A stretch of 64,000 nt of DNA from Candidatus Poribacteria bacterium. Its GTDB lineage: Bacteria; Poribacteria; WGA-4E; PCPOR2b. The stretch spans positions 1,952,001 to 2,016,000 of the forward strand of contig OZ244042.1 of the NCBI GenBank assembly GCA_965215015.1, in the 5' to 3' direction. A program made the position numbers and the translations under genes. The notes below the pieces were generated by a model. It searched no databases. It saw only the letters and a list, made by a program, of their open reading frames with translations, and had not been told where the DNA came from. Positions 11,924 to 32,063 of the stretch are shown here, piece by piece. Every line of letters begins with the position of its first letter. Position 1 is the stretch's first letter.

Positions 11924-12046
11924 CCCAGGTTGCTAGTAGTAGATATACTCCGTATGCCCGAACCTGTAGGTCGGGCATCTTGCCCGACCATAGCCCCAGC
12001 GGGCTAACATGTGTGTAGTATTATAAAAAACTAGCGACTTGAGTTA
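11921..12046. mobile_element. MITE-like element (TIR TAACYCARGTTGCTA) carrying GTAG-REP hairpins
   Basis: TAACCCAGGTTGCTAG at 11921 and CTAGCGACTTGAGTTA ending ~12046; internal GTAGGTCGGGCATCTTGCCCGAC. Confidence 0.6.
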
Positions 12047-12066
12047 AAGTAGAGTAAGACTATACG

Positions 12067-13080
12067 ATGATCAGATTCAGTTCAATTTTTATTCTCATCC
12101 TTCTCTGCTACCCCACCGTTGCCTTTGCCGCGGAAAAGTATGCAGGCGACTTTTTGACACTCGGCGTCGGTGCACGACCGTTGGGACTGGGCGGAAGTTT
12201 TGCAGCCATCGCGGACGATTCCACCGCGGCTTATTGGAATCCCGCTGGACTTGGGCGGTTGCGCCATTCCGAAGCAGCTTTCATGCACTCAAGTCTTGGG
12301 GACTTGGATAGTTACGATTTCGTCAACTATGTTCACCCAATCGGTGGAACTGCATCAATCGGATTGAGTTGGCTACGAGTGGGAATTGATGACATCCCGA
12401 TCACAGCACTCCCACGCCCCGCGAATCCGGTCAGCCCAGCCAATCGGCCTGAACAGATTGGAACTTTTAGCAGCACCGACAACGCCTTCTTCCTCTCCTA
12501 CGGCAGGCAGGTTGGATTCAACCTAGGGGCAAAACGGATGAACCTGTTCCTTGGTGGAAATGCCAAATTAATCTACATCACTGCACTGGGCAACACCAAT
12601 GCGCTTGGTGTCGGTGGAGACCTGGGACTCCTTTATGCGACATCTCCCGAAAAATCTCGCCGATTATCAATTGGTATCGTCGCACAGGACTTTTTCAGGA
12701 CAAAGTTGTACTGGAATACACCACCAGAAAATCCAGGCGAAGCCTCCAATACAGACACAATCGAACCTAACCTGAAAATCGGCCTTTCTTACCGCCAAGC
12801 ACTTAAGCCGTTAAACAGCCATTTGTTATTCACAGCGGATACTGATAGCCTGTACTCCTTTGAAATGCACTACGGTGCAGAATACGTTTTTGCAGAGCTC
12901 CTCTCATTAAGGATTGGTATTCAAGAGCGAAAAGGCATTAATACCAGCCGTCTAATGACGGCCGGCGCAGGGCTACGGCTTTCTTTTCTTAGCGGTGCCG
13001 CTTTCTCCGTTGATTACGCCTTCTTGGGGAACAGCGAACTGGGTAATAGCAATCGGATTTCTCTGATGACGCGGTTCTGA
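12067..13080 (+). CDS. PorV/PorQ-like outer membrane beta-barrel protein
   Basis: Signal peptide; FLTLGVGARPLGLGGSF.AIADD..A.YWNPAGL signature; VDYAF...ELG.SNRISL..RF C-terminus. Confidence 0.88.
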   Translation: MIRFSSIFILILLCYPTVAFAAEKYAGDFLTLGVGARPLGLGGSFAAIADDSTAAYWNPAGLGRLRHSEAAFMHSSLGDLDSYDFVNYVHPIGGTASIGLSWLRVGIDDIPITALPRPANPVSPANRPEQIGTFSSTDNAFFLSYGRQVGFNLGAKRMNLFLGGNAKLIYITALGNTNALGVGGDLGLLYATSPEKSRRLSIGIVAQDFFRTKLYWNTPPENPGEASNTDTIEPNLKIGLSYRQALKPLNSHLLFTADTDSLYSFEMHYGAEYVFAELLSLRIGIQERKGINTSRLMTAGAGLRLSFLSGAAFSVDYAFLGNSELGNSNRISLMTRF

Positions 13081-13096
13081 TTGATTCATTCGTGCT

Positions 13097-13320
13097 TAGG
13101 AGTTACGCACTTGAGTGTGTCGTAACGCCCTTCAACCCGTGTCACGATAGCCAATAAGGTGCTAACTGGCGCCGCCCAATCCATTGGGCGGGCGTTGAGA
13201 GGCGTGCCTCATCGAATCTGTAATGGGGGTGCAGAGCCTGCCCTCGCTGAAATTGACTTTCGGTGTCGAGATATCAATATAGACCTACAAAGCGTCGAGG
13301 GTTCAACTGCGTAAGACCTA
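13097..13320. mobile_element. MITE-like element with TIR TAGGA(G/C)TTACGCA
   Basis: TAGGAGTTACGCA (13097-13109) and TGCGTAAGACCTA (13308-13320); related ends at ~5338/5428 and ~55591. Confidence 0.65.
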
Positions 13321-13394
13321 AGTACATTGAATTCATTAATGTACTAATGAACTTTAGGACCGAGGGTGTATTTTTTTCCATTTTTTGGCAAACG

Positions 13395-13403
13395 TGATAT
13401 AAT
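13395..13403 (+). promoter_or_regulatory. Extended -10 promoter (TGnTATAAT) for the putative ncRNA
   Basis: TGATATAAT immediately upstream of the structured RNA candidate. Confidence 0.55.
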
Positions 13404-13407
13404 TCTA

Positions 13408-13550
13408 CTTGCTGGTGCAGCGAGGAGCAGCCTTAATACGAACCGGATTAGCCAGTGCTTGTATCCCGATTTATCGAGGGCACCGTCAACTGGCAATCGC
13501 ACAATTCCAAAGGGCCATGCTTCAGCTTTGGAAATATGCCACCTGGAAAT
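13408..13550 (+). ncRNA. Putative 6S RNA-like structured RNA
   Basis: Rod fold by eye: GGAGCA-GCC pairs with GGC-TGCTTC, A-rich central bubble (TTAATACGAACC / CACAATTCCAAA), GATT-GCCAGT pairs with ACTGGC-AATC; no covariance search run. Confidence 0.45.
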
Positions 13551-13607
13551 AGAGGAAGCGAGGAAACACACCCGATCCCACGCTTCAATTAACCAATGAA
13601 CCTCTGA

Positions 13608-14375
13608 ATGAATGAACCAATGAACCAACAACGGTCCCCCAGCTTTTTCACCCTCCTCACTCTTATCCTCAGTATGGGGCTGATCTGCTCAAGCCACTCC
13701 AATCTGGGGAGTGATGATGATAGTGACCTTTTCACCTTTGTGAGGCTAAAATACACAGGGGACAGTTGGTTCGGTAACGGTTGGGATGTTGATTTACCTG
13801 CCTCTGATCGAAATTTTATCCGAAAGCTCGCGCAGGCGACCAACATTCCCGTTGCCCGCCGCGAAAAAATTATCTCTGTCGGTTCCCCCGCCCTTTTCAA
13901 CTATCCCTTTGCTTACATCTTGGAAGTTGGCACACTCAACCTGAGCAACGCGGAGGCCGCCAATCTCCGTGAATATCTATTACGCGGCGGCTTTATCATG
14001 GTTGACGACTTTCACGGTGGACAGGAATGGCGCCATTTTTATCGCCAATTCAAGAAAATTTTCCCTCAGCGCGAACCTGAAGACATCCCCATGACCCACC
14101 CTTTATTCCACTGTTTTTTTGATATTGACACGCTTGTTCAGATTCCCGGTCTGAGATCCCTATTCAATGGACGAACCTACGAGCGACGGGACGGCTACCC
14201 CGCCTATTGTCGCGGCGTTTACGATGCACACGGGCGCTTAATGATGATGATTAATTTCAACACCGATATAGGGGATGCGTGGGAACATGCAGCGGAAGAC
14301 TTCTATCCACGCGAACTCTCTGATATGGCTTACCGCATGGGAATCAACGCCGTGGTCTATGCGTTGACGCATTAG
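13608..14375 (+). CDS. DUF4159 domain-containing exported protein
   Basis: FTFVRLKY..W.VDLP.SD, LREYLLRGGFIMVDDF, HPLFHCFFDI, NTDIGDAWE, MGINAVVYALTH; start may be 13620. Confidence 0.85.
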   Translation: MNEPMNQQRSPSFFTLLTLILSMGLICSSHSNLGSDDDSDLFTFVRLKYTGDSWFGNGWDVDLPASDRNFIRKLAQATNIPVARREKIISVGSPALFNYPFAYILEVGTLNLSNAEAANLREYLLRGGFIMVDDFHGGQEWRHFYRQFKKIFPQREPEDIPMTHPLFHCFFDIDTLVQIPGLRSLFNGRTYERRDGYPAYCRGVYDAHGRLMMMINFNTDIGDAWEHAAEDFYPRELSDMAYRMGINAVVYALTH

Positions 14376-14376
14376 C

Positions 14377-14808
14377 GTGAACGTAGAGCGGCCGAAAATG
14401 GGAAGGGGTAACATATGGTTTACGTCCCTTGAGCCACTATCATCTATTATAGGGACGAAAGAACATATAACCTCTCAAGATGCAAAGCAATCCGTTATAG
14501 AAAAAGAGTCTCCGTTTCCAGATCGAGATCCGTGGTCGGTCTATCACAACAAGATAGTTGACTTGACAATTGACACCTTTAGAAAGGCAGGTGCTCCAAT
14601 GACCCCGGAAAGTCGAGCAGACGTTCGGGCACAGCTTGCCGCCCAGCACGAAGCCCTCCGAGCATCAGGGGAGCCGATGCCGGCGGTGCCAAAATCTTTG
14701 GAAGTCATAAAAAAAGTGTTAAGTTCAAGAGGTAAACTGCATGAAGGACCGCAGACAGTTCGGAATTCAGAGCGTTCTGAGGAGGATGATGTGCCGCCGA
14801 CACAGTAG
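14377..14808 (+). pseudogene. Internally deleted relic of the secreted family at 33541-36704
   Basis: Keeps DPWxxY, GPQTV and the terminal P.TQ* of those paralogs; lacks the signal anchor and ~300 aa of core. Confidence 0.55.
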
Positions 14809-14859: not shown

Positions 14860-16818
14860 TTAGAATTTTCCAAAAACGCGCACGAAGGTTTCCATGAAGT
14901 TATCATCGTTCGCGTCCGTGTTGGCGCGTTGATCGATGTATTGCGCGCCGATGTGTAGAAACAGCTCTTTTTCGTAGGCGACAAAGCTTTTTTCCATCTC
15001 AGCCAGAAGAGCTTGACGAATAAAATCGTTTCCATCCTCAAGCATATCATTGAAGAATAGAACCTGCCCGCCTCCAGTGATTTTGATGGTCTTGGTGAAC
15101 TGGTAAACAACTTTGAGAATAAATGCAGACGCCGCGTCGCGCACATGCGCCGCTTCAATGACACGAAGTCGGATATTGCGTGAGGTCACTGCACCGTCAA
15201 TCTCCCCCACCAATGAGAGATGTTCCAAACGGTCCTCTGCCATCTGAAAACCGTTGCGAATCGTGTATTTGAACATCGGTGTAATTTCGAGCGATTTGGA
15301 TGGACGGATGCGGTAGTTTGTTTTTAGGATGCCGACTTCGTAATGTTTGTTATCCCGATCAAAATCGAGATTGTATCGTAGTTTGAGGCGTCCTGTTGTG
15401 ACCATCTGCTTAATCCCTGAATATTCCCAAGTAACCTTGGCGGTGTTGATTACGTCATCCTGCATCAACAATGGATCTTTGCGCCGTTTCTCGACCTCAA
15501 CACCACCATCTATATCAAAAAATGTCACATCCCCTCTCGCTTCCATTTGCTGCACGTCGGGTTGAGCCCGGTAGAGTTGTCCCTCCTCCCTACTCAGGAA
15601 ACCGGCGAAGTACCAAGTTTCATCGGGAATACGGTCCTTTACCCACTTCAATTCGTTCTCGACAATCAGAGCAGCATCCTTAGAAAGATCCCTCTTGTGA
15701 ACCAGGTTGGTGAACGCCTTTGTTGCTGTCGAGGAATAGCGAAACGCCGTATCCCTGAGGTCCTTTTCAAATTGCAAACCAATATCAAGATCTGTGGAAC
15801 TTCCACTACTACTGGTCTTCTGTTTCATCAACAGCCGCAGGCCTCGCAGGCCAACATCAAATTCGTAATTGGGGTCCTTATCGTTCTCTTCCTCGTCCCG
15901 GAGACCGTTGTTATTCTGATCTCTTTCGTCAAGGAAATCCTCATCGACATCAAAGAGCAGAATGTCATCCTCATAATCGAAGGTGCCATTGTTGTTCTTA
16001 TCAAGGTCCCCGGGAATAATTAGAGAAGGCGGATCTAGCCACGTATTATCGGTGTACCGGTCCTGATCATCGTTATCCCCGACAGACCGAGAGGCATCAA
16101 AACGGGAACCGACGCGGAACGCTTCCCCCTGAAAGATGGTATCCCCAACTGTTCGGAACGCCTTAAACACAGTTGTCGTTGCGTCAAAACGCGAACTGAG
16201 GTCCTTTCTCAATGCGCCTTTTGGCGTTGCCGCAAACTCTGCCTTTAGACCGTAGTTTGCAAAGTTAGTCTCCATATCCAGAGCCCATACCGGCGTGTCG
16301 CGGAAATACCAAGAAGCTCCTAGCTTGGACTTTCCGAATTTCGTCACTTCGCGTATGCCAATTCCAGACCCCTTGACAGCTTCTTGACCGATTACCGGAT
16401 TGAGCAGACCGGGGACCATTAAGATCATCCAATCAGTCCGTTCGGAACGCACATCCCAACGCACCCCTGAGAGGTCAATCTGATCGAAGGTAAACTTTGT
16501 AAAGGTCGTCGGCACCTCTCCCAAACTCAAGATGTTTTTGACATTGCCAGCGGTCTCCTCAATAATCATGACACTATGGAATCCACGCCGAAACACGCGG
16601 TCAAAATCGAACTCGTTCTGTCGGACCGCATCCTCCTCCGTATCTGCGAGAAAATCTCGTCTATTAGTAAAATCATATTCCACACGCCCTGACAGAAAGA
16701 GCTTACCGAATAGACTGTAGACATCCTCGCCCTCTACCGGAAAGGTCAGAGGACCGAACAGGAAGAAAACCACAAAGCCGAAGATTGAAAACTTCGCCTT
16801 TACCTGCCACTTATTCAT
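14860..16818 (-). CDS. Predicted outer membrane beta-barrel protein with an acidic DxDxN/DxNNNG Ca-binding-like insert
   Basis: Signal peptide, amphipathic strands, C-terminal FVRVFGKF; DLDKNNNGTFDYEDD and DQNNNGLRDEEEND. Confidence 0.75.
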   Translation of the reverse strand: MNKWQVKAKFSIFGFVVFFLFGPLTFPVEGEDVYSLFGKLFLSGRVEYDFTNRRDFLADTEEDAVRQNEFDFDRVFRRGFHSVMIIEETAGNVKNILSLGEVPTTFTKFTFDQIDLSGVRWDVRSERTDWMILMVPGLLNPVIGQEAVKGSGIGIREVTKFGKSKLGASWYFRDTPVWALDMETNFANYGLKAEFAATPKGALRKDLSSRFDATTTVFKAFRTVGDTIFQGEAFRVGSRFDASRSVGDNDDQDRYTDNTWLDPPSLIIPGDLDKNNNGTFDYEDDILLFDVDEDFLDERDQNNNGLRDEEENDKDPNYEFDVGLRGLRLLMKQKTSSSGSSTDLDIGLQFEKDLRDTAFRYSSTATKAFTNLVHKRDLSKDAALIVENELKWVKDRIPDETWYFAGFLSREEGQLYRAQPDVQQMEARGDVTFFDIDGGVEVEKRRKDPLLMQDDVINTAKVTWEYSGIKQMVTTGRLKLRYNLDFDRDNKHYEVGILKTNYRIRPSKSLEITPMFKYTIRNGFQMAEDRLEHLSLVGEIDGAVTSRNIRLRVIEAAHVRDAASAFILKVVYQFTKTIKITGGGQVLFFNDMLEDGNDFIRQALLAEMEKSFVAYEKELFLHIGAQYIDQRANTDANDDNFMETFVRVFGKF

Positions 16819-16861
16819 TAGCTAAATTTCCTTTTACGTCCTGCATTTCGCATTTCACCCC

Positions 16862-19800
16862 TTATATCCCATCGTGGTCAAACCGCTCAGTATAAACCGT
16901 CCATGCCCCTGTCAGGGAATCATATCGGGTCAAGCCGCCGTGCGTGCCAAACCAGAGATAGTCGCCATCGATTGCAATTGATAAGATGCCATTATGAGGA
17001 AGCCCATCGACTTTAGTGAAGGTCGTAAATTGTCCAGAGGTTTTGTCCAACATGGTAACCCCCTTGTCGAATGTACCGAACCAAACCCGATCCCCGCGAA
17101 TTGCCATTGATGTAATCAGATTCGAGCCCAAGCCATCCGCTTCCGTAAGTATCTTCCACGTTTCATTCACTGTATCGTAAACCGTTACACCGCGCCCACT
17201 TCCGAACCAGACCTGCTCCTTGTCAATGGTTATGCAACTGACCTCATCGCTCGCTAGTCCATCCTTTTGGGTAAAAGTAGTCCACATCCCCTGTCTGAGT
17301 GCATAAAGTGAGACGCCCCTTTTCGTTCCTACCCAAACACGATTGTCATCAACCGCTAGGCACCGAACATCATCATTTTTCAGACTCTTGCCGTACTTTC
17401 CTTCCACTGTTGGCAGGATCTCAATAGCAGCGTTATATGTTTCCCAAGCGTTCCGATCGTCGGAGAGAATGCTGTGCTTGCTAATACCGTTTTTCGTGCC
17501 GATCCACACATCGCTTCGATTCTCGACAACCGCTCGGATATCAACGCTCGGTAGTTGATTATCTTCCGTATAGGATTCAAACCGATCCGCGATTTTATCG
17601 TACCGACCGACGCCGCCCTCAGTTGCAATCCAAATATACCGTTTCCCAACAGATAGGTCAATGACATTATTATCGACCAGTTCATTTTTTTCCTCTTTTT
17701 GCTCATCTTCTTCTTCGGCCTCCTCTTCCTCATCCCCGTTGTCTTCCCCATCCCCTTCTGATTCTTCCTCCGATTTCTGAAAGTGCCTCCATCTGTCGTA
17801 CTGTTTATCGTATCGACTCAAGCCACGGTGTGTACCGACCCAGACGTATCGGGGATCGGTCGCAACAGCCACCGATCGTCGATCTGCCAAAGTCGTCGGT
17901 TTGGTGAAGGAGGTCCATGTTCCTTTCTCCTTATCATAGCGGCTCAAGCCCCTTGATGTGCCCACCCACACGTGTTTTGAATCAACCTTGAGCTGGTATC
18001 TCCAGACGCTATCATGAACAAGCCCATCCTCGACCGTGAAAGTTGTCCATGCACCGGACGCTCGCGAGTATTTTAGGACGCCTTTACTACCTGTGCCAAC
18101 CCAGAAACCATCGCTATCCTCCCCGACAGCCTCAACCCCCGAATCGGGGAGTCCATCATTGTGTGTGAAGGAGGTCCACGACTTGCCAATTTTATCGTAT
18201 CTGCTGATACCACTCCAACCGAAGCACCAGACGTAATCCTCGCTGACCTGTCCATACCTGTTCCAATCAACCCGCAGCCCTTTGCGTCTATCATAAATGG
18301 TCCAGGTATCGTTGGTGGGCTGATAGTAACTTACACCACTCGTTCCCCGATCACTGACCCACGAATAAGAACTGCCGCCACTGGTCCACACCCCCTCTCC
18401 GTCTGCGGCAATCCACTGACCGGACCGCGAAGCCATACCTTGCGCCTCTGTGTATGACCGCCAAGTTTTCGTCGCCCGCTCATATCTCTTGACCCCCACG
18501 CCGTTTGTGGAAAACCAGACATAATCTTTCGTACAGGCAATGTCTTCGATGTACGTCCCGGGACCCGCTTCTGTCACCTTCACTGATTCCCATTCTTTAG
18601 TTCGCTTATCATAGTGCGCCGCCACGCCCCCTAGGAAGGCAACCCAAACGCCAGTTGGTGCGTCAATCTCAATCAGCGTGGCGTGGTGTCCCGGTAGCCC
18701 GGATGACTTTGTGAAGTGAGTCCATGTATCAGATGCTTTGTTGTATTGCAGTACACCGCCATCCCCTGTGGCACACCAGACATTTTCTGCCCCCACTGCC
18801 AGCCGGGAAATTGAGGTGATAAACGGGACCTCGGAGGAGAGGGGTAGGGCGTTCTTCGTGTATTCTACCCACGTATCGGTGCGCCGATCAAATTTCAGAA
18901 TTGCACCATTTGGGGAAGCCGCCCAGTTGAGTACCCACAGGTAGTGTCCGTCTAACTCAATCCAACGTGCCGGATCTTCTCTCAGAATCTCTGTATCGCG
19001 ATAGGGCGTATGTTTCTCCCATCGATCTTCCCCCATCTCATAGACAGCAAGTCCGGCAACCGTACCGAAAAAAACCTGTTCACCCACGACAGCAATGCTC
19101 TGAACATTATCGTGCAGCAACCCTTCCGGATGCATGGTAACAACCTGTTGCACTCGGATTCCATCGGAGCGTGCAACACCCCCTGGTGTACCGATCCAGA
19201 TGGTTTCTCTGTCTACCGCAACTGTCCTAACATTCAGGTTCGGTAACCCCTCGGTGATGTGTGTTGACATTCCATCGCGAATAACCCACAATCCATTCCG
19301 TGTGCCGACTAGCAATCGGCCGTCCGGACTGAACGCAAGTGTGTTGACATAATCTGTCACCATCGGAAAAGGTTCAAATTTATCTGTCGCAGCATCTCTC
19401 CGATATAATCCTTCAGTTGTTCCCGCCCAAATTTCCTCATCAATTGCCTGCACCGCTGTTACCCACTTGCTCGTGAGGTAGGAAGGTGAGGCGCGAAAGG
19501 TGGGGCGTGACGAGGAAGGGGCCAAAGGCACCCCCATCGACGAGTTTTGTTGATTCGTTGATCTGCTGATCGTTTCAATCCCCGATTGCGGGGAAGTTGG
19601 TGAGTCTCCTATTAAGACACTCAATCCGCATTTCGTCCCGACCCAAACCTGATTGGAGAGACTGATGCAGGTAACGAAATTGTTTGCCAGCCCATTTCGC
19701 TCGGTATAGAAACGCCACCGCTCCCCTTCTAGTCTTCCCAGCCCCAAGGAGGTCCCAACCCATAGCGTTCCGTCGTTGGCATCACCCACTAAAGAGGTAA

Positions 19801-21055
19801 TATAGTTTGTCGTTAGACCGTCTGCTTTGGTGTAGGTTCTCCACGTTTTTTCGCGAAGTGAGTAGCGGCTCAAACCTTTATTTGTACCAGCCCAGAGGGC
19901 ATTCCCAGTCGAAACCACTACCTTAACCTGATTCGACACCAGCGTATCCCGTCTGGAATACCACGTCCACCCATCTGTCACTTTATCGTATCGCCCCAAA
20001 CCGTGCTCGTATGTGCCAATCCAAATATTCCTACCATCAACAGCTAACGCGGTAATGTGATCGCTAACCAATCCCTGCGCTGTCGTGTACTTGAACCAAG
20101 TGTCTACCGTTGTGATGTACCGCCGAATTCCACGATCCGCCGAACCAAACCAGACATTGTCGCCATCAACTGCTATCGCTCGGATGAAATCGCTCTCTAT
20201 ACGATCCGTTCGGGTATGGCTTTCAGTAAAGGTCTGGTTGATTGTACTGTACTTGCTTACACCCGATTTCTCCGTACCCACCCAAACAGCGTCAGGACTC
20301 AAAGCGATATAGCGGATATGGTTTTCTACCAACCCTTCCTCTTTCGTGTAAGCGTTCCACGCGTCCTTGGGTTTATCGTAGCGTCGGAGCCCGTCTTCTG
20401 TGCCGAACCAAACATACTTGGATTCCACTGCAACTGCGGTGATTGCGTTAAATTGATCTTTATCCTTCTCCTGTTGTAACGCCCACGCCCTAGTAGTCTT
20501 ATCATAACGCGAAATGCCCGCATCGGTACCAACCCAGATATAATTTCCGTCCACAGCGATTGCGGTCACTTTGTTGCTGGCCAAGCCGTCACGCCGCTGG
20601 AACTTTTTCCAATGGTTAGTTTCCAAGTCATAAAGACTAACGCCGAGAGGCGTACCTATCCAGACCGATTTCCCATCGGCGGCGATTGCGATAACATCAT
20701 CAGAGAGGAGCCCGTCCTCCCTGTCTAATTTTGTCCAACGATTGTCTGCTTTATGATAGACGCTGACCCCCCGATCTGTCCCTACCCAGACGTGGTCAAC
20801 TGAAGTTGAAACACAGCGGACATTATCGCTCACTAACGCTTGTTCCGCTGCTGCTTGGGTAATCGCAGCTTCCTCCAAAACAGTTGACTTGTCTGCCCGT
20901 TGATCAATTTGGCTGAGACCACACCCAAGGTGAAATAGCAGCATCAAAACTTGAAAGCAGAATAACGAGACAACGGGATAACGGGACAACAGTGGCCCTT
21001 TCGTTTTCACGTTCTCTCGGCTGCCCGTTTTTAGATCCCCATTAATCTTCCGCAT
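16862..21055 (-). CDS. Giant beta-propeller repeat lipoprotein (paralog 3; two-component-regulator-propeller-type repeats)
   Basis: Lipobox HLGC; many GL..N.V.AIA.DG..VW.GT..G.SRYD repeats; start MRKIN at 21055 overlaps the upstream stop. Confidence 0.85.
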   Translation of the reverse strand: MRKINGDLKTGSRENVKTKGPLLSRYPVVSLFCFQVLMLLFHLGCGLSQIDQRADKSTVLEEAAITQAAAEQALVSDNVRCVSTSVDHVWVGTDRGVSVYHKADNRWTKLDREDGLLSDDVIAIAADGKSVWIGTPLGVSLYDLETNHWKKFQRRDGLASNKVTAIAVDGNYIWVGTDAGISRYDKTTRAWALQQEKDKDQFNAITAVAVESKYVWFGTEDGLRRYDKPKDAWNAYTKEEGLVENHIRYIALSPDAVWVGTEKSGVSKYSTINQTFTESHTRTDRIESDFIRAIAVDGDNVWFGSADRGIRRYITTVDTWFKYTTAQGLVSDHITALAVDGRNIWIGTYEHGLGRYDKVTDGWTWYSRRDTLVSNQVKVVVSTGNALWAGTNKGLSRYSLREKTWRTYTKADGLTTNYITSLVGDANDGTLWVGTSLGLGRLEGERWRFYTERNGLANNFVTCISLSNQVWVGTKCGLSVLIGDSPTSPQSGIETISRSTNQQNSSMGVPLAPSSSRPTFRASPSYLTSKWVTAVQAIDEEIWAGTTEGLYRRDAATDKFEPFPMVTDYVNTLAFSPDGRLLVGTRNGLWVIRDGMSTHITEGLPNLNVRTVAVDRETIWIGTPGGVARSDGIRVQQVVTMHPEGLLHDNVQSIAVVGEQVFFGTVAGLAVYEMGEDRWEKHTPYRDTEILREDPARWIELDGHYLWVLNWAASPNGAILKFDRRTDTWVEYTKNALPLSSEVPFITSISRLAVGAENVWCATGDGGVLQYNKASDTWTHFTKSSGLPGHHATLIEIDAPTGVWVAFLGGVAAHYDKRTKEWESVKVTEAGPGTYIEDIACTKDYVWFSTNGVGVKRYERATKTWRSYTEAQGMASRSGQWIAADGEGVWTSGGSSYSWVSDRGTSGVSYYQPTNDTWTIYDRRKGLRVDWNRYGQVSEDYVWCFGWSGISRYDKIGKSWTSFTHNDGLPDSGVEAVGEDSDGFWVGTGSKGVLKYSRASGAWTTFTVEDGLVHDSVWRYQLKVDSKHVWVGTSRGLSRYDKEKGTWTSFTKPTTLADRRSVAVATDPRYVWVGTHRGLSRYDKQYDRWRHFQKSEEESEGDGEDNGDEEEEAEEEDEQKEEKNELVDNNVIDLSVGKRYIWIATEGGVGRYDKIADRFESYTEDNQLPSVDIRAVVENRSDVWIGTKNGISKHSILSDDRNAWETYNAAIEILPTVEGKYGKSLKNDDVRCLAVDDNRVWVGTKRGVSLYALRQGMWTTFTQKDGLASDEVSCITIDKEQVWFGSGRGVTVYDTVNETWKILTEADGLGSNLITSMAIRGDRVWFGTFDKGVTMLDKTSGQFTTFTKVDGLPHNGILSIAIDGDYLWFGTHGGLTRYDSLTGAWTVYTERFDHDGI

Positions 21056-24000
21056 AACTTGTCCATGTCCCTGTTTTCTGATTGTAGCGACACAAACCCC
21101 GCTCCGTGCCAAACCAGAGTTGGTCACCATCAAACGCGATTGCCTCGACTCGATTATGGGGCAAGCCATCGTCCATATTAAAGATACGCCAGCTACCCGT
21201 GTTTCTATCCAGTCGTGTAACTCCCGCATCTGCCGAACCAAACCAGATTTCCTCCCCGTTCAAAGCGATGCAGGTAACAACATCGCCCCCCAAACCGTCC
21301 GATCGGGTGTAAGTAACAAAATCCCCAGATTCGATGTTGTACTTTGTCGCACCCTTACCCGTACCGAACCAGAGGGCTTCTCCATCAATGACGATGACGC
21401 TAGTGTCTGTCAGGTTGCTCTGAAGCCCGAGCTTATCAAGGACAGAGCTACCTGTGATCAGGGCTTCCCATGTCTTTTTTGCTGTATCATACCGGCAAGC
21501 CCCTTTGTCCGTGCCAAACCAGACCATCTCCTCACCGACCGCAACGCAACGAACATCATCACTCAGAAGAGTCTCTGCGTATTTCTTATCATCACCCATG
21601 CCTTTGATTTCCAGGGCGTGTGTGTATGACTCCCAAGCATTTGGATCATCAGACAGACGGTTGAAGGTTGCAACGCCCCGGTCTGTCGAGATCCATAAGT
21701 CGTAGCCTCTTACGTCCAAATCTCGGATAGTATTGGAAGGCAAACCGTTTTCAACGGTGTAGGTTTCCCAGCGATCACCGGCTTTATCGTAGCGCAGGAC
21801 GCCTCTGTTGGTGCCGAGCCAGGCGTATTTTTCGTCAATCGCTAGGCAGGTGACACCGGGTGTATCGTCCTCCCCATCCTCCACCCCCTTTAGACGGGGA
21901 GCAAACCAACGATCTGTTTGCTTGTCGTATCGATGTAAGCCATTGGTCGTTGCCAACCACACATAACGTGCTTCGGCGGCAATTGCGTACACCTTCGACT
22001 CGCGAAGCGTCCGTGTCAGAGGCGACTGGGTGAAAGTCGTCCATGCCTCTGTCTTGAGGTCATATCGGCTCAATCCCCCGGCTGTTCCCACCCAAGCATA
22101 GTTGTCATCTACCACTAGGGAATACTCAATGAGGTCGTTACTTGCGAGACCATTTTCCTCACTGAAAAATGTCCAATCCTTTGCGGCTTTGTTATACCGA
22201 GCCAATCCCTGTTCGTCCGCCGCGAACCAGACCGCGCCGGTAGTTTCCACAACTTGCATCGTGCGGTCAAAATTAACACCCTCCATCTGTGGGAGTTTCA
22301 ATGTCGTCCACGAGTCTGTTTTATTGTGATACTTCGACGCAATGGCACCACTCCCGCTCCACCCTGAGTACCTAAGCCAAACGCCATCCAGTCCCCTGTC
22401 GATCCCGTAGTTCACGCCTGAGAGCACCCGCCAGCTTGAAAATATCTCCCATTCTCCCGTCCGTCGATTATAACGGCTAGCATCTCCCCATCCCGTAACC
22501 CAGACATAATCGCCTGCGATGAGCAAATCATTGGTTTCATTGTTTCCCAAACCGTGCGCTTCCGTGATAGAGATCCATCGATCCGCCAATTTATCGTACT
22601 GCTTAATTCCTTCCCAAACCGTCGTCACCCAGACATATCGCGGATCGACCGCAATGGTCCCAATATTACTCCATTCTACACTTGGCACGATTTCATAAGT
22701 TTCCCATGTATCCGTCTCAAGTGAATAACGGCTCACCACACCGCCAATATGCGCTGTCCAGAGATATGGGGCATCAAGAACAATCGTCCAAACTTCATTG
22801 TTTGGCAGACCATCCTCCACCGTATAATGACGCCACCTATCCGTCGCTTTATCGTAGCGTAACAACCCGCCGTTGGTGCCGACCCAAACCGCATTTCCAC
22901 CCACAGTCAGCGCGTGGATGCGCGTGATTGGCCTCTCAATAGATTTCAATGGGAGGTCTGCTTTGCTGAAAAAGCGAAACGTATCTGTTCGTCCGTTATA
23001 CCTTACGATGGCCCCGTCTGTAGAATCCTTCCAATTACCAAACCAGAGCCCATCCCCGTCTTCCGCCAGCTTGCTGACCCAATTCGAGTGCAGCATTTCT
23101 GTCGTTGTCGCTGCAACGTGTTTCGACCAGTCGCCTGTCCCTTCATCCAAACAGCTGACTCCGGCGGTCGTACCTACCCAAACCTTCCCACCATTCTTTG
23201 AAATGGTTTTGACGTTATCGGAGGCGAGTCCCTCGTTAGTGTTCTCGCGGGTATAATGCGTCCATGCGGCTTCTGTGATGTTGTACTTTGCCAGTCCCAA
23301 CGGTGTTCCTATCCAGATGGTATCGTCATCAACGACAATCGCTCTGACATTGGCATGAGGAGCGTTTAATAAAGGCGCGAAAGACCGTTCGTTGTCTCGT
23401 TTTTTTCTTGCTGCGTTTTCTTTTTCTATGATGGTTGACCGGTCTAACCGCACCAAGCCGGACAGCGTGCCTATCCAGATAGAATTACCCTCTATTCCAA
23501 CGGTGTTAATCACCGCCGAAGGCAGCCCATCCGTCTCAGTCAGTTTGCCCGCAATACGGGCAGACCGATTATAGTAGATAAGACCATCTGTGGTAGCAAT
23601 CCAGACGAAATTGTCATCTAGTTTGATGTCATTAATCCAACCGGAGACTTGCAACCCAGACGGATGTGTATTCCATTTTCGGTTTTGAGGTTCGTAGGTT
23701 GAGAGTCCAGCTCTTGTTCCAATCCATAGGCGTGAGAACGTGCTCTGAGCACCTCTATGCTCCGACTCCCATGCAATACAGGTCACGAAATCATGTGCCA
23801 ATCCATCTTTCGTCGCAAAAAACGTCCACCTGTCTTCGTTTTTATGTTGAGAGGCAAATTTCGCCACCTTGTTCTCTTTTGATTCTACCGGAATTTGCCT
23901 CTTGCCTAAACCGCGCGGTGTGCCGACCCAGAGATCTTTCCCTACTTCCACAACAGCGGTAATGTAGTTATCCGCCAAACCATCTGCCTTACTCAACGTC

Positions 24001-25145
24001 CGCCAATTAAGTGCCGCCGAAAATTCTGGACCTTCGAGATAAGTTGCTTGGTTCAATCCGGATCGTGTTGCTACCCAAACTGACTCATCCGTCGCTAAAA
24101 TGTGCTTTACGTCATTATCACTCAATGCCTTAATTGCGCCATAAACCCTCCACGTTTCATGGCGCAAGTCATATCGTACCAGTCCATGCTCATACGTACC
24201 GAACCACACTACATTGCCATCTGCGGCAATTGCCGTGATATGATTGGAAGGCAACCCGCCTTCTGTCGTGTATTCCCGCCATGTATTAACAGATAAAATG
24301 TAGCGTTGGGCACCACTGTCAGCAGTCCCTAACCATAGTGACGTTCCGTCTACTGCCAGTGCGTTTATCTGATCGCTCGTCAGCCGATCCCTTTTGGTGT
24401 ACGCCCTAACAAACTCCGAATTTCGTTGATCATAGCGACTGAGGCCCTTATTCTCCGTGCCGAACCAAACAGAATCCTCATCGGCGGCAATCGCAGTCAC
24501 ACTGTTATCGATAAGGCCGCTGTCCTTATCATAGTTGTTCCATGAATCGGTGAGTTTGTCATATCTGGAAACCCCGTTCTCCGTACCGACCCAGATGTAG
24601 TCATCATCAATTGTAATCTGTGTAACAGTGTCACCCGCGAGCCCATCCGCCTCGCGCTTCCGTGCCCAACTGTTTGTCTGTTTGTCATAGCGGGAAAGTC
24701 CGTTGGGGGTGCCAAGCCAGATAAATCTCGAATCAGCAGCAATGCAGGAGACCTCTCGCCCTGCCAAGCCATCGCGCGGCATGTAGCGTGTCCACACATT
24801 CGTCTCCATTTCATAACGACTCACGCCATCGCGTGTGCCGATCCAGATCTGAGTGTCGTCCAAAGCAATCGATAAAACGTAGTTGTGAGCCAAACCGTCT
24901 CTCACAGTGAAGTTACTCCACCGACCTTGCATCTTATCGTATCGACTTAACCCCCGGTCAGTACCTACCCACAAATAACGTGAATCAACAGCTAGGGATA
25001 GAACGCGGTCACTCAGGAGCTGGCTGGCTACACCTCCCTCCTCATCAACGAAAAAATCAGGGTGCATCTGCCGTGGATCATGTATAGAACAACTCGCCAA
25101 AGACAGGAGTATTATGAACCCCAAGATTATAGGGACTTGACGCAT
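21042..25145 (-). CDS. Giant beta-propeller repeat lipoprotein (paralog 2)
   Basis: Lipobox LASC after start MRQVP at 25145; same repeat throughout; no kinase or TM tail. Confidence 0.87.
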   Translation of the reverse strand: MRQVPIILGFIILLSLASCSIHDPRQMHPDFFVDEEGGVASQLLSDRVLSLAVDSRYLWVGTDRGLSRYDKMQGRWSNFTVRDGLAHNYVLSIALDDTQIWIGTRDGVSRYEMETNVWTRYMPRDGLAGREVSCIAADSRFIWLGTPNGLSRYDKQTNSWARKREADGLAGDTVTQITIDDDYIWVGTENGVSRYDKLTDSWNNYDKDSGLIDNSVTAIAADEDSVWFGTENKGLSRYDQRNSEFVRAYTKRDRLTSDQINALAVDGTSLWLGTADSGAQRYILSVNTWREYTTEGGLPSNHITAIAADGNVVWFGTYEHGLVRYDLRHETWRVYGAIKALSDNDVKHILATDESVWVATRSGLNQATYLEGPEFSAALNWRTLSKADGLADNYITAVVEVGKDLWVGTPRGLGKRQIPVESKENKVAKFASQHKNEDRWTFFATKDGLAHDFVTCIAWESEHRGAQSTFSRLWIGTRAGLSTYEPQNRKWNTHPSGLQVSGWINDIKLDDNFVWIATTDGLIYYNRSARIAGKLTETDGLPSAVINTVGIEGNSIWIGTLSGLVRLDRSTIIEKENAARKKRDNERSFAPLLNAPHANVRAIVVDDDTIWIGTPLGLAKYNITEAAWTHYTRENTNEGLASDNVKTISKNGGKVWVGTTAGVSCLDEGTGDWSKHVAATTTEMLHSNWVSKLAEDGDGLWFGNWKDSTDGAIVRYNGRTDTFRFFSKADLPLKSIERPITRIHALTVGGNAVWVGTNGGLLRYDKATDRWRHYTVEDGLPNNEVWTIVLDAPYLWTAHIGGVVSRYSLETDTWETYEIVPSVEWSNIGTIAVDPRYVWVTTVWEGIKQYDKLADRWISITEAHGLGNNETNDLLIAGDYVWVTGWGDASRYNRRTGEWEIFSSWRVLSGVNYGIDRGLDGVWLRYSGWSGSGAIASKYHNKTDSWTTLKLPQMEGVNFDRTMQVVETTGAVWFAADEQGLARYNKAAKDWTFFSEENGLASNDLIEYSLVVDDNYAWVGTAGGLSRYDLKTEAWTTFTQSPLTRTLRESKVYAIAAEARYVWLATTNGLHRYDKQTDRWFAPRLKGVEDGEDDTPGVTCLAIDEKYAWLGTNRGVLRYDKAGDRWETYTVENGLPSNTIRDLDVRGYDLWISTDRGVATFNRLSDDPNAWESYTHALEIKGMGDDKKYAETLLSDDVRCVAVGEEMVWFGTDKGACRYDTAKKTWEALITGSSVLDKLGLQSNLTDTSVIVIDGEALWFGTGKGATKYNIESGDFVTYTRSDGLGGDVVTCIALNGEEIWFGSADAGVTRLDRNTGSWRIFNMDDGLPHNRVEAIAFDGDQLWFGTERGLCRYNQKTGTWTSYAED

Positions 25146-25321
25146 ATTTGTGTGCCTCTTCTGTAGAAAACAACAATCTTTGTGCCCCAATCAAGACATT
25201 TTTCCAAAACCGTGAAATAGTCTGTCTCTTCTGCAATGTTTTGGCTCAATCTTGACGCGAGAAGAATCCCTTTAAGGGCCAACCTTCTATGGAATTGACT
25301 TCTACATATTCTATTTTCAAA

Positions 25322-28300
25322 TCACCTTCGGTCTTCTTCTTCATCAAAATGTGGGGTAAAAATTGTCCACGTATCTGTCACTATATCATGCCGACTGAGT
25401 CCACGCTCAGTCCCTACCCAAACGGAATCCCCATCTATCGCAAGCGCAAACACACGATTATGACTGAGTCCATCTTTTTGTGTAAAGTGTTTCCATTCTG
25501 TTGTTGCCTTATGGTAGCGGGACACGCCAGCATCAAAACTGCCGAACCAGACGAAATCACCATTTGCAACGATACTGGTAATCTGATCGCTGGCTAAACC
25601 GTCAGACGGTGTGAAGAGGCGCCATTCTTCTGTCTTCGTGTTTAATCTGCTGACACCCCCTTCTGTGCCAAACCACACCCAATCCCCGTCAATGCAAATA
25701 CTACTCACTTTGTTCCGATACAATCCAGCCCGCTTCGTATAAGTTACCCAGACCTCCTTTTTCATGTCATAGCGACTGATGCCTCTCTCTGTCCCCACCC
25801 AGACGTAGCGATCTCCCACTGCTATACTAGTAACGCGGTTATCTACAAGACTGTTAGCGTATTCTTGAGATAATAGCATTGTGTCCACATCGTCTGCACG
25901 TGTGAAGGTCTCCCAAGCATTAGGGTCGTCCGAAAGTGTATTGTATCTGCTCACCCCTTTCTCTGTGCCGACCCATAAGGTGCGTCCTTTCACATCGGCA
26001 ACCTTGACAAATGTGTCGGCTAGACCGTTTTCTGCTTCGTGCTGATCCGCCCAATGCGCCGATTTGTCGAACCGGGTTACACCCTTGGCAGTTGCTATCC
26101 ACAAATATTTGTCGTCGGTGACAAGATCGTTCACAGGTTCCTCCACAATGCGCTTCTCCAACCATAAGTCATTTTGTTTATCGTAGCGCCTGGCTCCCCA
26201 ATCTGTTCCGCAATACAGGTAGCGAGAATCGACAGCAATTGCATGCACCACTTCAGCGGGCACAGCGCGTCTCCCCGTATATACCGTCCAGCTATCTTTA
26301 CGCATGTCATAACGACTGATACCGTTGGGACCACCCAGCCAAAGGAAGTTGTCCTCAGCTTTCAAAGTTGGATAGTTTATCCGATTATTCAGCAGACCAT
26401 CCTCTTCCGTAAAAACCGTCCAAGATGAGGCTGCCTTATCGTATCGACTGATACCGTGCTCTCGGCTTCCGAACCACACGAATTCAGTCGTTTCTTGAAC
26501 ATCTCTGAAATTGTTTCCTACATTCTCTGGATGTCCTCGGAAGACCTGCCAAGTCTGATTGGCCCTATGAAATCCGCTGGCGGGGACCGTATCGTCATTT
26601 TCCCACCAGCTCTGGTTATACAACACCCACATATAGTCTATCCCAGAGATAACTTCCCGAATCCGGTCAGCAACCAACCCTTTGCTGGAATCAATGATGA
26701 CCCAGCTATCTGTATGCTCATCATACTTGCTCAAGCCCTCACCCCAACCATAAGCCCAGACATCGTCATTGTCCACGACAACAAAGCCGATGGTTGCATC
26801 CAATAGACCATTCGCTGCAGTGTAACGTTTCCATGTTTCGTTCTGTTTGTCGTAACGTGCCACTCCCTCCATCTGTGCTGGAACCCAGACATAACGCCTA
26901 TCCGCCGCAAGGCGCGTGCGATATGATTCCATATCAGGGGAGACTTCCTTAAAAACCACCTGATGGGTTTCCCATTTATCCCTATCCCGCCGATACCGAC
27001 AGATTCGATTATCTCTCAAAACGACCCATACGTCATTTCCATCAACCATCAATGTTGTCGTTTTGCTCGCTGCCAGCCCATCTTTGACGGTGTAGTGCCT
27101 CCACGTATCCGAATTTTTATAATAAGCGAGCACTCCCCCATCCGTGGCAAACCATACACTGTCATCAGTCACCTCCATCCAATCAATTTGGGTGATGAGA
27201 GGCAAATTCTGCCAATCATTCCTTTTTTTATCGTAGCGGAACTTGCCTCTTGGTATCTGACTATTCGGGGGGGGCGGATGTAGGGGGGCTTTACCAACTT
27301 GCCTGGAATCTCGCTCTGATTGGTGGGACCCGCTCTGGTAGATTTCCGTCACATCCTCCTTCATGTAATGCGTCCAAGTTCCGGTGCGCTTGTCATACCG
27401 AATGATTTCTCCGTTGGCGGTGCCCCCCCATGCCAAAAACCACACCCAATCACCATCTAGTGCTGTGTGTTGTATACTGCTGTGGCGCAGAATAACCGTC
27501 CGTTCCTTTGCGCGAATCGCTCGCCAAGAGTTGTCTTCAGGAGAGTATACACCCAATCCGCCGATTGTCCCCAGCCAAATTTGATCGTCTACCACGCAAA
27601 TATCCCGCACGTTTTCGTGTCCCATCGCTACCCCTGGCTGAGTTAAATTGAATTGTCTCCAATCCAATCCTGGCACGGCGGAAACCCAACTGTTGCGAGG
27701 AAGTACACCTAACCCGCCCGGTGTACCGACCCAAAGGGCGTCTTGGGTGATAGCGAGTGTTCTTACGTTGTTATTCGGCAGTCCATCTGCCCTTGTAAAG
27801 TTGTGCCATCTTTTCTCCCGTTTATCGAATATGGAAAGTCCTTGTTGTGTCCCGACCCAAAGTCTGTTCTTCTCACTTGCAATCGCGTTGACGTGATGCG
27901 TGAAACGTGATGCGTGAAACGTGACACGTTGATTGGTTAAATCGCTGTTCTGCGAGTCCGTGAGTCGAGCTAGCCCTCGATTGGTTCCAAGCCAAAGGGA
28001 GTTGTTGTCAACGGCGATCGCGTTTATCCACGTTCCTTGCAGCTCCTTAAAAGTATGCCATTTGCCGTTCTGCTGATTATATTGACAAAGCCCATTGCGT
28101 GTGCCGATCCAGACCACCTGATCAACCACAGCTACATCAAGGACAAAATCGCTAGGAAGTCCATGCCGCCGCCGCCAGAATTTCCACCGATTGTTCTGAT
28201 ACCGCCCCACCCCCTTTGACGTTCCAACCCAGATTTTATCATCGTCAGCGACAACGCGGGTAATATAATTGGTTGTCAATCCCTGTGCTTTGGTATAGGT

Positions 28301-29452
28301 TTTCCACCCCCCAGATTGCAGGTCAAATCGACTGAGCCCCATCGCCGTACCGATCCAAAGGACACCATCCTGTTCTGCAATCGATTTGATGTTATCGCTC
28401 ACTAAGCCTTCCGCCCTCTTGACGGTACTCCACAACCCCCGAATCTTATCAAATCGTGCTAGCCCATCCTCGTAAGTGCCGAACCAAACATACTTGCCAT
28501 CGACTGCTATCGTTGTGATATTTGACGATGGAAGTCCATCCTCCATTTTATAGTGAACCCATGTGTCAACAGGTTTAATGTATCTTTGAACACCCTCGTT
28601 TGCTGTGCCAATCCAGACATACAGACCATCAACCAAGATGTAATTAATCTTATCTGTTTCGAGTAGATCTGTGCGCGTATAGGTTTTTACAAATGTCTGC
28701 TCTGTGTTGCTGTATAAACTGACCCCGGCATTTTGTGTGCCGAACCAGATGAAATCCTCATCAACAGCGATAGTTGTAACATTGTCGTCCGCCAAACCCG
28801 CGCTTGTCGTCAACTGCGTCCACGAATCGATCTTCTTATCATATCTAGATACACCTTTATCGGTTGCAAACCAGACATATTCTTCCTCCACAGCGATAGC
28901 GGAAATCTGATTACTGGTCAAGCCACCATCGTCGGTGGTGCGAAGTGCCCAAACATCAATCGCTTTATTATATCGGCTCAATCCTTTATCTGTACCAAAC
29001 CAGATGTAGTGCCCATCTACACCGATGGCCATCACGCGATTGCTCGGCAGCCCGTCGTTACGGGTATAAGTTGTCCATCTATCGATTTCGGGTTGATATT
29101 TTGAAACGCCGGATTCTGTTCCAAACCACACGGTATCCGCATCTATCGCTACACTAGACACCTTGTTATTCGCCAATCCATCTTCCACAGTGTAGCTTAT
29201 CCACAAATTTTCGTGTTTGTTGAAACGATTAATCCCTTTGTCGGTTGCGACCCAGATGTGTTTGGTATCTGCTGCAATAGCGTTGACCTGATCGCTTAAA
29301 AGCGCGGTTGTTACCCAGGGCGTAGATTGATTCATCGCTTCTGATGTCTCATCAGGCGCAGTAAAGGTACATCCAATAAGAGATAGTAAAATAACACAAG
29401 CTGCCACTTTAATCAGCCAAGCCTCAGAGATAGGAAACGACCTGAACTGCAT
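25322..29452 (-). CDS. Giant beta-propeller repeat lipoprotein (paralog 1)
   Basis: Lipobox LIGC; start uncertain (29452, 29500 or 29542); same repeat architecture. Confidence 0.85.
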   Translation of the reverse strand: MQFRSFPISEAWLIKVAACVILLSLIGCTFTAPDETSEAMNQSTPWVTTALLSDQVNAIAADTKHIWVATDKGINRFNKHENLWISYTVEDGLANNKVSSVAIDADTVWFGTESGVSKYQPEIDRWTTYTRNDGLPSNRVMAIGVDGHYIWFGTDKGLSRYNKAIDVWALRTTDDGGLTSNQISAIAVEEEYVWFATDKGVSRYDKKIDSWTQLTTSAGLADDNVTTIAVDEDFIWFGTQNAGVSLYSNTEQTFVKTYTRTDLLETDKINYILVDGLYVWIGTANEGVQRYIKPVDTWVHYKMEDGLPSSNITTIAVDGKYVWFGTYEDGLARFDKIRGLWSTVKRAEGLVSDNIKSIAEQDGVLWIGTAMGLSRFDLQSGGWKTYTKAQGLTTNYITRVVADDDKIWVGTSKGVGRYQNNRWKFWRRRHGLPSDFVLDVAVVDQVVWIGTRNGLCQYNQQNGKWHTFKELQGTWINAIAVDNNSLWLGTNRGLARLTDSQNSDLTNQRVTFHASRFTHHVNAIASEKNRLWVGTQQGLSIFDKREKRWHNFTRADGLPNNNVRTLAITQDALWVGTPGGLGVLPRNSWVSAVPGLDWRQFNLTQPGVAMGHENVRDICVVDDQIWLGTIGGLGVYSPEDNSWRAIRAKERTVILRHSSIQHTALDGDWVWFLAWGGTANGEIIRYDKRTGTWTHYMKEDVTEIYQSGSHQSERDSRQVGKAPLHPPPPNSQIPRGKFRYDKKRNDWQNLPLITQIDWMEVTDDSVWFATDGGVLAYYKNSDTWRHYTVKDGLAASKTTTLMVDGNDVWVVLRDNRICRYRRDRDKWETHQVVFKEVSPDMESYRTRLAADRRYVWVPAQMEGVARYDKQNETWKRYTAANGLLDATIGFVVVDNDDVWAYGWGEGLSKYDEHTDSWVIIDSSKGLVADRIREVISGIDYMWVLYNQSWWENDDTVPASGFHRANQTWQVFRGHPENVGNNFRDVQETTEFVWFGSREHGISRYDKAASSWTVFTEEDGLLNNRINYPTLKAEDNFLWLGGPNGISRYDMRKDSWTVYTGRRAVPAEVVHAIAVDSRYLYCGTDWGARRYDKQNDLWLEKRIVEEPVNDLVTDDKYLWIATAKGVTRFDKSAHWADQHEAENGLADTFVKVADVKGRTLWVGTEKGVSRYNTLSDDPNAWETFTRADDVDTMLLSQEYANSLVDNRVTSIAVGDRYVWVGTERGISRYDMKKEVWVTYTKRAGLYRNKVSSICIDGDWVWFGTEGGVSRLNTKTEEWRLFTPSDGLASDQITSIVANGDFVWFGSFDAGVSRYHKATTEWKHFTQKDGLSHNRVFALAIDGDSVWVGTERGLSRHDIVTDTWTIFTPHFDEEEDRR

Positions 29453-29700
29453 AGTATGGCCAAGTAGCCTTCCCCTATAAATTGCACCGAAACGGGTCAT
29501 AGCGTGGATTCCCCACTTTTTTATCTTTATCCAATTCTTCACAAAACCACAAAACTATGAAAATTCCGAGAATGTCTTAACGGTGTTCTTCAACTAGGGC
29601 GTGTTGACATTTGACAGCCCGTAGGTTGAAGACTCTCCGAACGGAGTTGGGTTGAACGGGAACCTGAAATCCAACTTTCAATCCAAAAGAAGCGGGAAAC

Positions 29701-30050: not shown

Positions 30051-30780
30051 GGCAACTGACGTTATCATCATCCAATTTTTGGTCCTCAAGCCCTTGAAAC
30101 TCCCAAGCAGATCTTTTTAACAATGCTTTACGTGAATTTATGCTAAAATAATTAAATGCCTACTGATTTTGGAATTATATCACAGGCACACAAAGCCTTC
30201 AAGTGGAGTAAAGTAACCTTTCAGGGCAATCGCATATAAATGGTGCGTAGGACTTTGGCATACAACAATGTCAATCGACTCGCGAACACAGGTTTCCCAA
30301 CCTGCGATCGACCGCGGGTTAGAAAACCCCGATTTCATCGAGGGCAGGCACCGCGCCACGATAGGGGGGACCCCAGGAGCTAATCGATCAATTGTCTAAT
30401 TTCTATAACAGGTGCAATTCCCCTAAGTAACCTTTGCAAATTTCTATTAACGATTTTCTGGATGAAACTCCGAAGGAATCCAATTTCTTCAACATATTTT
30501 GATAAATCACAGACAATTCAGAGGTGTTCATAATTCAACCAAGAACCTGTGCAGACACCCATAGAGGCGTACCGTAGTAGCGCAATTCATTGCGCGTGGA
30601 ATGTCCCCGTGCAGACTCAGACACCTGTAGAGGCGTCCCCTCCGAATCGCGGCTGTTTCTGAAAATCTAGGGGAATCGTGGCGGGTTGCTTTGAATCCCA
30701 ATCTTATCGGGGGTGGTCACTCAATCGGCAAAACCGTAAACACCCAACCAAAAACGTTCAAACCATCAGGAAAGTTCACA

Positions 30781-32061: not shown

Positions 32062-32063
32062 AT

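Follow-up and report, generated by a model that had tools for sequence, protein, structure and literature searches.

What do three giant propeller proteins, encoded head to tail, do beside an outer-membrane β-barrel in a bacterium of the phylum Poribacteria? The arrangement lies in a 64,000-nucleotide stretch of Candidatus Poribacteria DNA (assembly GCA_965215015.1, contig OZ244042.1, positions 1,952,001 to 2,016,000), referred to here as the window, whose own numbering is used throughout. Between 14860 and 29542 the window holds four co-oriented minus-strand open reading frames (ORFs) of 1406, 1382, 1459 and 652 codons; we call the first three propA, propB and propC, their products A, B and C, and the fourth the barrel gene. 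A preliminary description of this DNA had proposed an operon for a heterotrimeric surface machine docked on a dedicated barrel. On balance we lean towards a different account, in which the locus is a local, triplicated form of a two-gene outer-membrane module that is spread across Poribacteria and joins lipoproteins of about 29 propeller blades to a dedicated barrel.

The propA gene (25322..29452, minus strand) probably starts at the ATG at 29452 and would then encode ~1376 residues; its ORF spans 25322..29542, the frame staying open upstream as far as a GTG at 29542. For propB (21042..25145, minus strand; ORF 21042..25190) the ATG at 25145 gives a 1367-aa protein that is also the public gene call, at 100% identity and coverage. 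The propC gene (16862..21058, minus strand; ORF 16862..21241; ~1398 aa) probably starts at the ATG at 21058, as judged from the ORF translation, and would then overlap the end of propB by 17 nt. The barrel gene (14860..16818, minus strand) follows the propC stop after 43 nt. The ORF map and Pfam thus confirm the three co-oriented paralogs of ~1400 aa and the tightly linked barrel gene. We claim no operon boundaries from sequence, because neither promoter-like sites (26 between 14000 and 31000, against 18.6 ± 4.9 in shuffles) nor terminator-like sites (12 in the same span, against 15.0 ± 3.5) are commoner than in shuffled DNA; Rfam and tRNA scans of the window returned no matches. Four sequencing runs of a single study contain this DNA, none of them recorded as RNA.

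A barrel and one propeller gene form the conserved unit

All 77 related loci found in genome records carry the name Candidatus Poribacteria or "uncultured bacterium", which moves the system out of the Bacteroidota frame in which it had first been placed. At 72 of these 77 loci the barrel gene has a propeller gene of ~1400 aa immediately upstream on its own strand, but the form varies: A/B/C-type genes are present at 28 of the linked loci, and at the other 44 there is just one gene, whose product shares no more than 30-36% identity with A, B or C. Longer fetched sequences hold the order A-B-C-barrel in six genomes of two families and a single gene in two other genomes. The five exceptions are two loci of the window's genus from which A-C have been deleted (L024 and L033, the latter retaining a 65-residue remnant of B at L033:9725-9919), one in which the two genes lie 29 kb apart (L046, from genome G057), a 3.3-kb contig (L047) and a barrel fragment (L091). 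In L024 and L033 the barrel abuts a homolog of the window ORF at 30691-32061.

The window's own genome encodes a fourth full-length propeller protein, paralog D (G000:C1:4311489-4315634; L102:7490-11638), which is 33-35% identical to A-C and lies 2.3 Mb from the A-B-C-barrel genes, between an amino-acid permease and a TonB-dependent receptor and with no barrel beside it. The gene after D was considered as a second barrel and rejected, as it is the permease. D is 79% identical to one of the single genes, and in a FastTree phylogeny of 48 propeller proteins, in which long branches meet (a warning of the tool) and which uses no mixture model, all 26 single genes included group with D, while A, B and C each form a branch of their own with support 100. 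By their sequences A, B, C and D thus appear as old paralog clades.

Across the loci only the propeller and barrel genes are conserved (63-64 and 68 loci), against at most 19 loci for any flanking ORF. The conserved unit is therefore a pair of barrel and propeller genes, and the three-plus-one set first put forward is one local form of it, given the 44 of 72 loci with one D-type gene. The heterotrimer fares no better as a conserved form, as those same loci have a single propeller gene and two genomes of the window's genus that lack A-C keep D and the barrel.

Presence and absence of the two genes agree exactly. Of 151 genomes sampled evenly across the phylum, 125 contain the barrel (E ≤ 1e-40) and 125 the propeller family (E ≤ 1e-120), with identical tallies genus by genus (for example, 27 of 38 in g7, 53 of 57 in g13 and 7 of 9 in g10). 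The other 26 genomes match neither gene, and the same 20 are named as lacking the barrel and as lacking the propeller, six of the 26 being named in neither listing. Among 41 relatives, the 30 with an intact barrel are the same 30 that have at least one propeller paralog; 11 have neither intact, and one of these keeps barrel fragments with stops. Both genes are retained even where they are unlinked (G057, G124), and D and the barrel are both retained where A-C have been deleted (G003, G006). Absences are scattered inside several genera, which indicates repeated joint loss of barrel and propeller. The orthologs are thus neither unlinked nor independently varying, with 72 of 77 loci linked and an identical distribution in the 151 genomes, and the same two observations strongly support the earlier proposal that the barrel is dedicated to the propeller proteins.

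Propeller proteins with predicted lipid anchors and no output domain

Pfam assigns regulator-propeller repeats (Reg_prop, PF07494) to A, B and C with E-values of 9.6e-44, 6.8e-37 and 7.2e-43, and besides these only generic propeller families. At E ≤ 0.01 none of the three yields a Y_Y_Y, kinase, receiver, DNA-binding or sorting-tail match (Por_Secre_tail, FlgD_ig and CHU_C included), in line with their initial characterization as proteins made only of such repeats. An AlphaFold2 model of B residues 184-1382, built from 66 aligned sequences, has a mean predicted local distance difference test (pLDDT) score of 83.2, a predicted template-modelling (pTM) score of 0.73 and ~26 four-stranded blades; three N-terminal blades, with motifs at 74, 116 and 158, lie outside the model. 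Each protein would accordingly have ~29 blades, probably grouped into about four propellers, which agrees with an earlier estimate by eye of roughly four. Among paralogs A-D, conservation is highest in the first and the last propeller. In propC only, the last propeller region carries an acidic, low-complexity insert rich in Glu, Asp and Gly (approximately residues 1180-1215, window 17500-17700).

A, B and C are predicted lipoproteins. Each has a hydrophobic signal segment followed by a lipobox of the kind named in the preliminary description, with the Cys, in ORF numbering, at position 58 in A (LIGC), 34 in B (LASC) and 107 in C (HLGC); LIGC and LASC are canonical and HLGC is atypical, with His at -3. 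A [GAS]-Cys after a hydrophobic stretch is present in 69 of 90 full-length propeller homologs from related loci, and the genome encodes the processing enzymes Lgt (173.4 bits) and LspA (144.2 bits). The three non-repeat signatures noted at the outset also hold up, each occurring once, at equivalent positions, in A, B and C, against 4, 0 and 0 occurrences in 900 shuffles. In exact form they occur in 36, 15 and 9 of the 48 family members, and they appear to be drifting features of the family.

Foldseek searches with the propeller model return multi-propeller proteins, and those with a known bacterial role are BT4663, BT4673, BT3049 and PorZ. The closest fold with an assigned role is the sensor domain of BT4663 (4a2l_D, E 1.0e-26), and 3ott_B and 3v9f_A are also matched. 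BT4663, BT4673 and BT3049 are hybrid two-component system sensors of Bacteroides whose propeller domains, of the same Reg_prop family, bind oligosaccharides according to the title of the structure entry. Such sensors join two propellers to a Y_Y_Y domain, a membrane helix, a kinase (HisKA/HATPase), a receiver and a DNA-binding (AraC) output. A, B and C have none of these additional parts, their chains ending inside a propeller, and instead combine ~29 blades with a predicted lipid anchor and a partner barrel.

A predicted plug-less barrel of an unnamed family

The 652-aa barrel protein matches no Pfam and no NCBIfam family, and its homologs are annotated in the source records only as "hypothetical protein". 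It has a signal peptide, a C-terminus ending in FGKF and an AlphaFold2 model (36 alignment rows; pLDDT 77.8, pTM 0.70) that is all-β from residue 31 to the C-terminal Phe, with ~29-31 strand segments as read off the DSSP string, not the coordinates. Since strands begin at approximately residue 31, there is no room for a plug, and Pfam finds neither Plug nor TonB_dep_Rec, transporter folds matching the model with template-modelling (TM) scores of at most 0.26. The protein is therefore best described as a predicted large, plug-less outer-membrane barrel of an unnamed family, with the signal peptide, barrel model and terminal Phe expected of the class. An ortholog at L031 (G023:C1:529371-531305) contains a single in-frame TAG beside A-B-C genes that look intact, which may reflect an error in sequencing or a recent loss of function.

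Structural comparison places the barrel among outer-membrane proteins without singling out a relative. Foldseek gives 239 matches at E ≤ 0.001, and all 49 of those listed are outer-membrane barrels with TM ≤ 0.30, among them SlpA (E 1.8e-8, TM 0.26), XusA (9gbc_A, rank 2, E 2.4e-7, TM 0.26) and LptD. We assign no specific family, because these listed matches are generic barrels at such low TM scores. VIA-align likewise returns only outer-membrane barrels, none of them close; the best is SprA (6h3i_A), the T9SS (type IX secretion system) translocon, at Z 16.6, root-mean-square deviation (rmsd) 11.7 and 415 aligned residues, only just ahead of ordinary porins with their Z of about 15.

The low-pLDDT stretch of the model coincides with an Asp/Asn-rich loop (residues 237-323; 15850..16110, minus strand) bearing DxNxNG-type motifs. 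Its residues D248, D250, D251, D253, D257, N275, N277, D281, D300, N302, N304, G305, D308, E311 and D313 are nearly invariant, distant relatives included. Pfam finds no TSP_3 or EF-hand match in the loop, and the motifs suggest a putative Ca2+ site. Of the "Ca-loop" barrel first described, the conserved acidic loop within a predicted barrel stands, and calcium binding is a plausible reading of its alignment.

A phmmer search of 1.84 billion representative sequences yields 68 barrel matches. The full-length ones are Poribacteria proteins and one 567-aa protein at 34% identity; the others are fragments or proteins of 700-1100 aa that align with the acidic loop and with portions of the protein's C-terminal half. 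The longer proteins, from Gemmatimonadota, Latescibacterota and Spirochaetota, are true distant homologs (E 1e-14 to 1e-4) that share the Asp-rich loop and C-terminal strands with the 652-aa barrel. In a language-model atlas the nearest clusters, which come from Poribacteria, Gemmatimonadota and Latescibacterota, lack any Pfam family; DUF6029, at 0.90 in the same atlas, serves as a lead only.

A probable barrel-lipoprotein complex

A multimer prediction of barrel and propellers had been suggested as a check. We paired the barrel (residues 30-652) with the N-terminal 334 residues of mature C, the first propeller being chosen because it adjoins the lipid anchor and is, with the last, the most conserved among A-D. 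The prediction, in which each chain had its own alignment and one of about four propellers was tried, scores 0.33 (runs of 0.42, 0.27 and 0.33; "weak support"), against 0.00 for the best of three controls, with contact agreement of at least 37% and partner pLDDT of at least 78. In calibration 58 of 80 solved complexes attain the pass mark, as do 2 of 110 mismatched pairs, but at scores of 0.60 or less only 7 of the 80 solved complexes pass, along with both passing mismatches. The check thus lends weak support to docking of the first propeller of C, at a score within an unreliable band. We count this pass nonetheless, in view of the high prior that synteny and co-inheritance supply. Barrel and lipoproteins very likely work as one envelope device, and we consider it probable that they form a physical complex.

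Complexes of this general kind are known. In gut Bacteroides, as described in two reports (PMC6143338, 10.1101/2022.11.17.516869), the pairs BtuG-BtuB and XusB-XusA consist of a propeller surface lipoprotein that caps a barrel. The Poribacteria pair resembles them in joining a β-propeller lipoprotein to an outer-membrane barrel; however, BtuB and XusA are plugged TonB-dependent transporters with single-propeller lipoproteins, whereas here no plug is predicted for the barrel and the lipoprotein has four times the size. LptD-LptE and MtrB-MtrA/MtrC are also large plug-less barrels that hold a partner protein, and MtrB (6r2q_B) aligns with the barrel over 414 residues in VIA (Z 11.9, rmsd 7.1), but neither LptD nor MtrB has any sequence relationship to it and their partners are unrelated. 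Lipoprotein-barrel outer-membrane modules are thus already known as a kind, of which the Poribacteria pair is a variant in an uncultivated phylum.

Type IX secretion and other explanations

Convergent with the barrel gene lies a plus-strand block (5648..14808) that encodes a PorU-type C25 sortase of 2091 aa (5648-11923; 442.9 bits, cut-off 420) with its own FlgD_ig/Por_Secre_tail C-terminus, a PorV/PorQ-family barrel (12067-13080; 113.4 bits, cut-off 90), a DUF4159 protein (13608-14375) and a 143-aa ORF (14377-14808). This vicinity had suggested a PorZ/PorQ analogue serving a neighbouring PorU/PorV module. In the T9SS of Porphyromonas gingivalis, according to two papers (PMC8545088, PMC5562754), PorZ is a Reg_prop-type propeller protein held at the outer membrane on a dedicated barrel, PorQ. 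By analogy, the pair studied here would be an arm of a type-IX-like sorting apparatus, its barrel anchoring a propeller that hands surface glycolipid to PorV-held PorU. The likeness is real as far as it goes: PorZ has the same propeller type (5m11, Foldseek E 1.3e-21), and the NCBIfam PorZ model (NF052228) scores partial stretches of A, B and C at 123.3, 120.4 and 101.6 bits. These scores are far under the cut-off of 260. The lipoproteins, moreover, have no sorting tail and ~29 blades where PorZ has two propellers, and the barrel is much larger than PorQ and does not match the PorV/PorQ family (NF033709).

Nor is the link to PorU/PorV a conserved feature. PorU and PorV genes adjoin the barrel in 18 of 77 loci, all in the window's genus, where the barrels are at least 91% identical to the window's, and PorU-like genes occur in five of five tested genomes that lack the pair. 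The window's genome has eight PorV-family genes above cut-off and only weak, partial SprA matches (71.5 bits against a cut-off of 200, in a 2161-aa ORF elsewhere). It also encodes a closer PorZ/PorQ look-alike (G000:C1:~231000-237100; L103:4027-7740 and 7952-10120), a 1237-aa protein with Reg_prop, Ig and FlgD_ig domains followed by a 722-aa gene that resembles the PorV family (79.8 bits, cut-off 90). The latter gene was rejected as a relative of the barrel, having no BLASTP similarity to it; a 794-aa WD40 protein lies upstream of this look-alike pair.

What keeps a sorting role in view is the company of the barrel's distant relatives. Around these relatives in 80 metagenome loci, counted as raw tblastn rows within 8 kb, there are 30 matches to DUF4159, 16 to sorting-tail proteins (FlgD_ig/CHU_C/Por_Secre_tail; their similarity to PorU is confined to the tail) and 9 to PorV-like genes. 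At two such loci (L125, L182) Pfam identifies tail-bearing proteins, a PorV-like gene, a 1052-aa TPR protein, ExbB and DUF4159 around barrel relatives of ~950-1120 aa, and in the window's genome a 1118-aa relative (L104:6961-11541) is followed by an ExbB-like gene, a CarboxypepD_reg-ExbB fusion. The best VIA match, SprA, points the same way, although ordinary porins score nearly as high. The wider barrel superfamily thus has a tie to T9SS-style sorting, and the Poribacteria branch may or may not have retained that tie. The PorZ/PorQ idea thus keeps the context of these distant relatives in its favour and loses the conserved PorU/PorV linkage and the sorting tail, and we judge it unlikely for the pair itself.

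Three further explanations fit less well. The barrel might be a Slam-like transient translocon that flips the lipoproteins to the surface and is no stable partner of them; adjacency and strict co-inheritance of lipoprotein and barrel genes suit such a role, as does one barrel for several paralogs including the unlinked D, but the barrel, with no Pfam family, has no DUF560/Slam match, is by its DSSP string far larger than the 14-strand Slam barrel, and would have to accept folded 1350-aa propeller chains as implausible cargo, so that we regard the idea as improbable. No more credit goes to lipoproteins that face the periplasm as an envelope scaffold or output-less sensor with the barrel as a mere anchor. 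The Reg_prop domains of Bacteroides sensors are indeed periplasmic (title of entry 4a2l), and no surface-export signal is known for Poribacteria; yet the short turns of the barrel in the DSSP string offer little periplasmic binding surface, and no signalling partner is conserved nearby. That a paralog expansion merely sits beside an unrelated porin, with no functional tie, is very hard to credit when barrel and propeller co-occur exactly, are jointly missing time and again within several genera, and are syntenic at 72 of 77 loci.

The reading of a dedicated outer-membrane module has points of its own to answer. Related genomes are not independent, and the co-occurrence counts overstate the number of events. 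The lipobox test fails for 21 of the 90 homologs, some reading LANC and others having no Cys. No glycan-degrading or transport genes are conserved beside the pair among the flanking ORFs of the loci, and none of the 80 metagenome loci with distant barrel relatives has a propeller neighbour, while the context of those relatives points toward secretion or sorting. A complex score of 0.33, finally, falls where passes are more often wrong than right unless the prior is strong. All of these weigh against that reading, and our preference for the account as a whole is slight.

Other genes in the window

Beyond the barrel-propeller genes, the window holds four plus-strand ORFs at 30691-36704 (456, 188, 501 and 493 aa) to which neither Pfam nor NCBIfam assigns a family; the products of 501 and 493 aa look paralogous, both aligning at 38-40% identity with one and the same stretch of L033. 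At 837-3558 lie genes for two HEAT-repeat proteins, of which one includes a PDZ domain, and at 40266-41405 a gene for a 379-aa leucine-rich-repeat protein. HEAT- and leucine-rich-repeat proteins are typical of symbiont genomes.

A model for the module and its implications

We propose that the lipoproteins would be exported by Sec and lipidated by Lgt and LspA, and that they would dock on, or be presented by, the outer-membrane barrel, probably through the conserved first propeller. The more variable middle propellers may bind ligands, most plausibly glycans, as the repeat type does in the Bacteroides sensors. The old paralogs A, B and C and the unlinked D would share the single barrel and differ in the ligand bound. 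As the role of the pair, outward-facing binding of a ligand such as a glycan is a tentative assignment that we hold with less than even confidence; a T9SS-type sorting role is less likely again, and the remaining weight lies on export-only or periplasmic roles.

A bolder interpretation, to which we attach still less weight than to the PorZ/PorQ analogy, is that the barrel is one member of a superfamily, as yet undescribed, of very large, plug-less channels with a calcium loop that serve type-IX-style sorting in several phyla, its Poribacteria branch having become a dock or export-display route for 29-blade lipoproteins. If this were true, it would be a novel kind of outer-membrane machine, with A-D as interchangeable subunits on one channel.

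We found no published description of the pair in literature on Poribacteria propellers or T9SS, or on Reg_prop lipoproteins, supplementary files lying outside the search. The two-gene module would represent a sensor-type propeller deployed without signalling output and fourfold enlarged over its usual size, and it supplies, for a family of large outer-membrane proteins without a name in Pfam or NCBIfam, a first partner and a genomic setting. The phylum is uncultivated, and sponge symbionts are the source of many of its genome records. Present in roughly five out of every six genomes sampled from the phylum, the pair is a concrete, testable candidate for the interface of these bacteria with the host matrix and dissolved organic matter.

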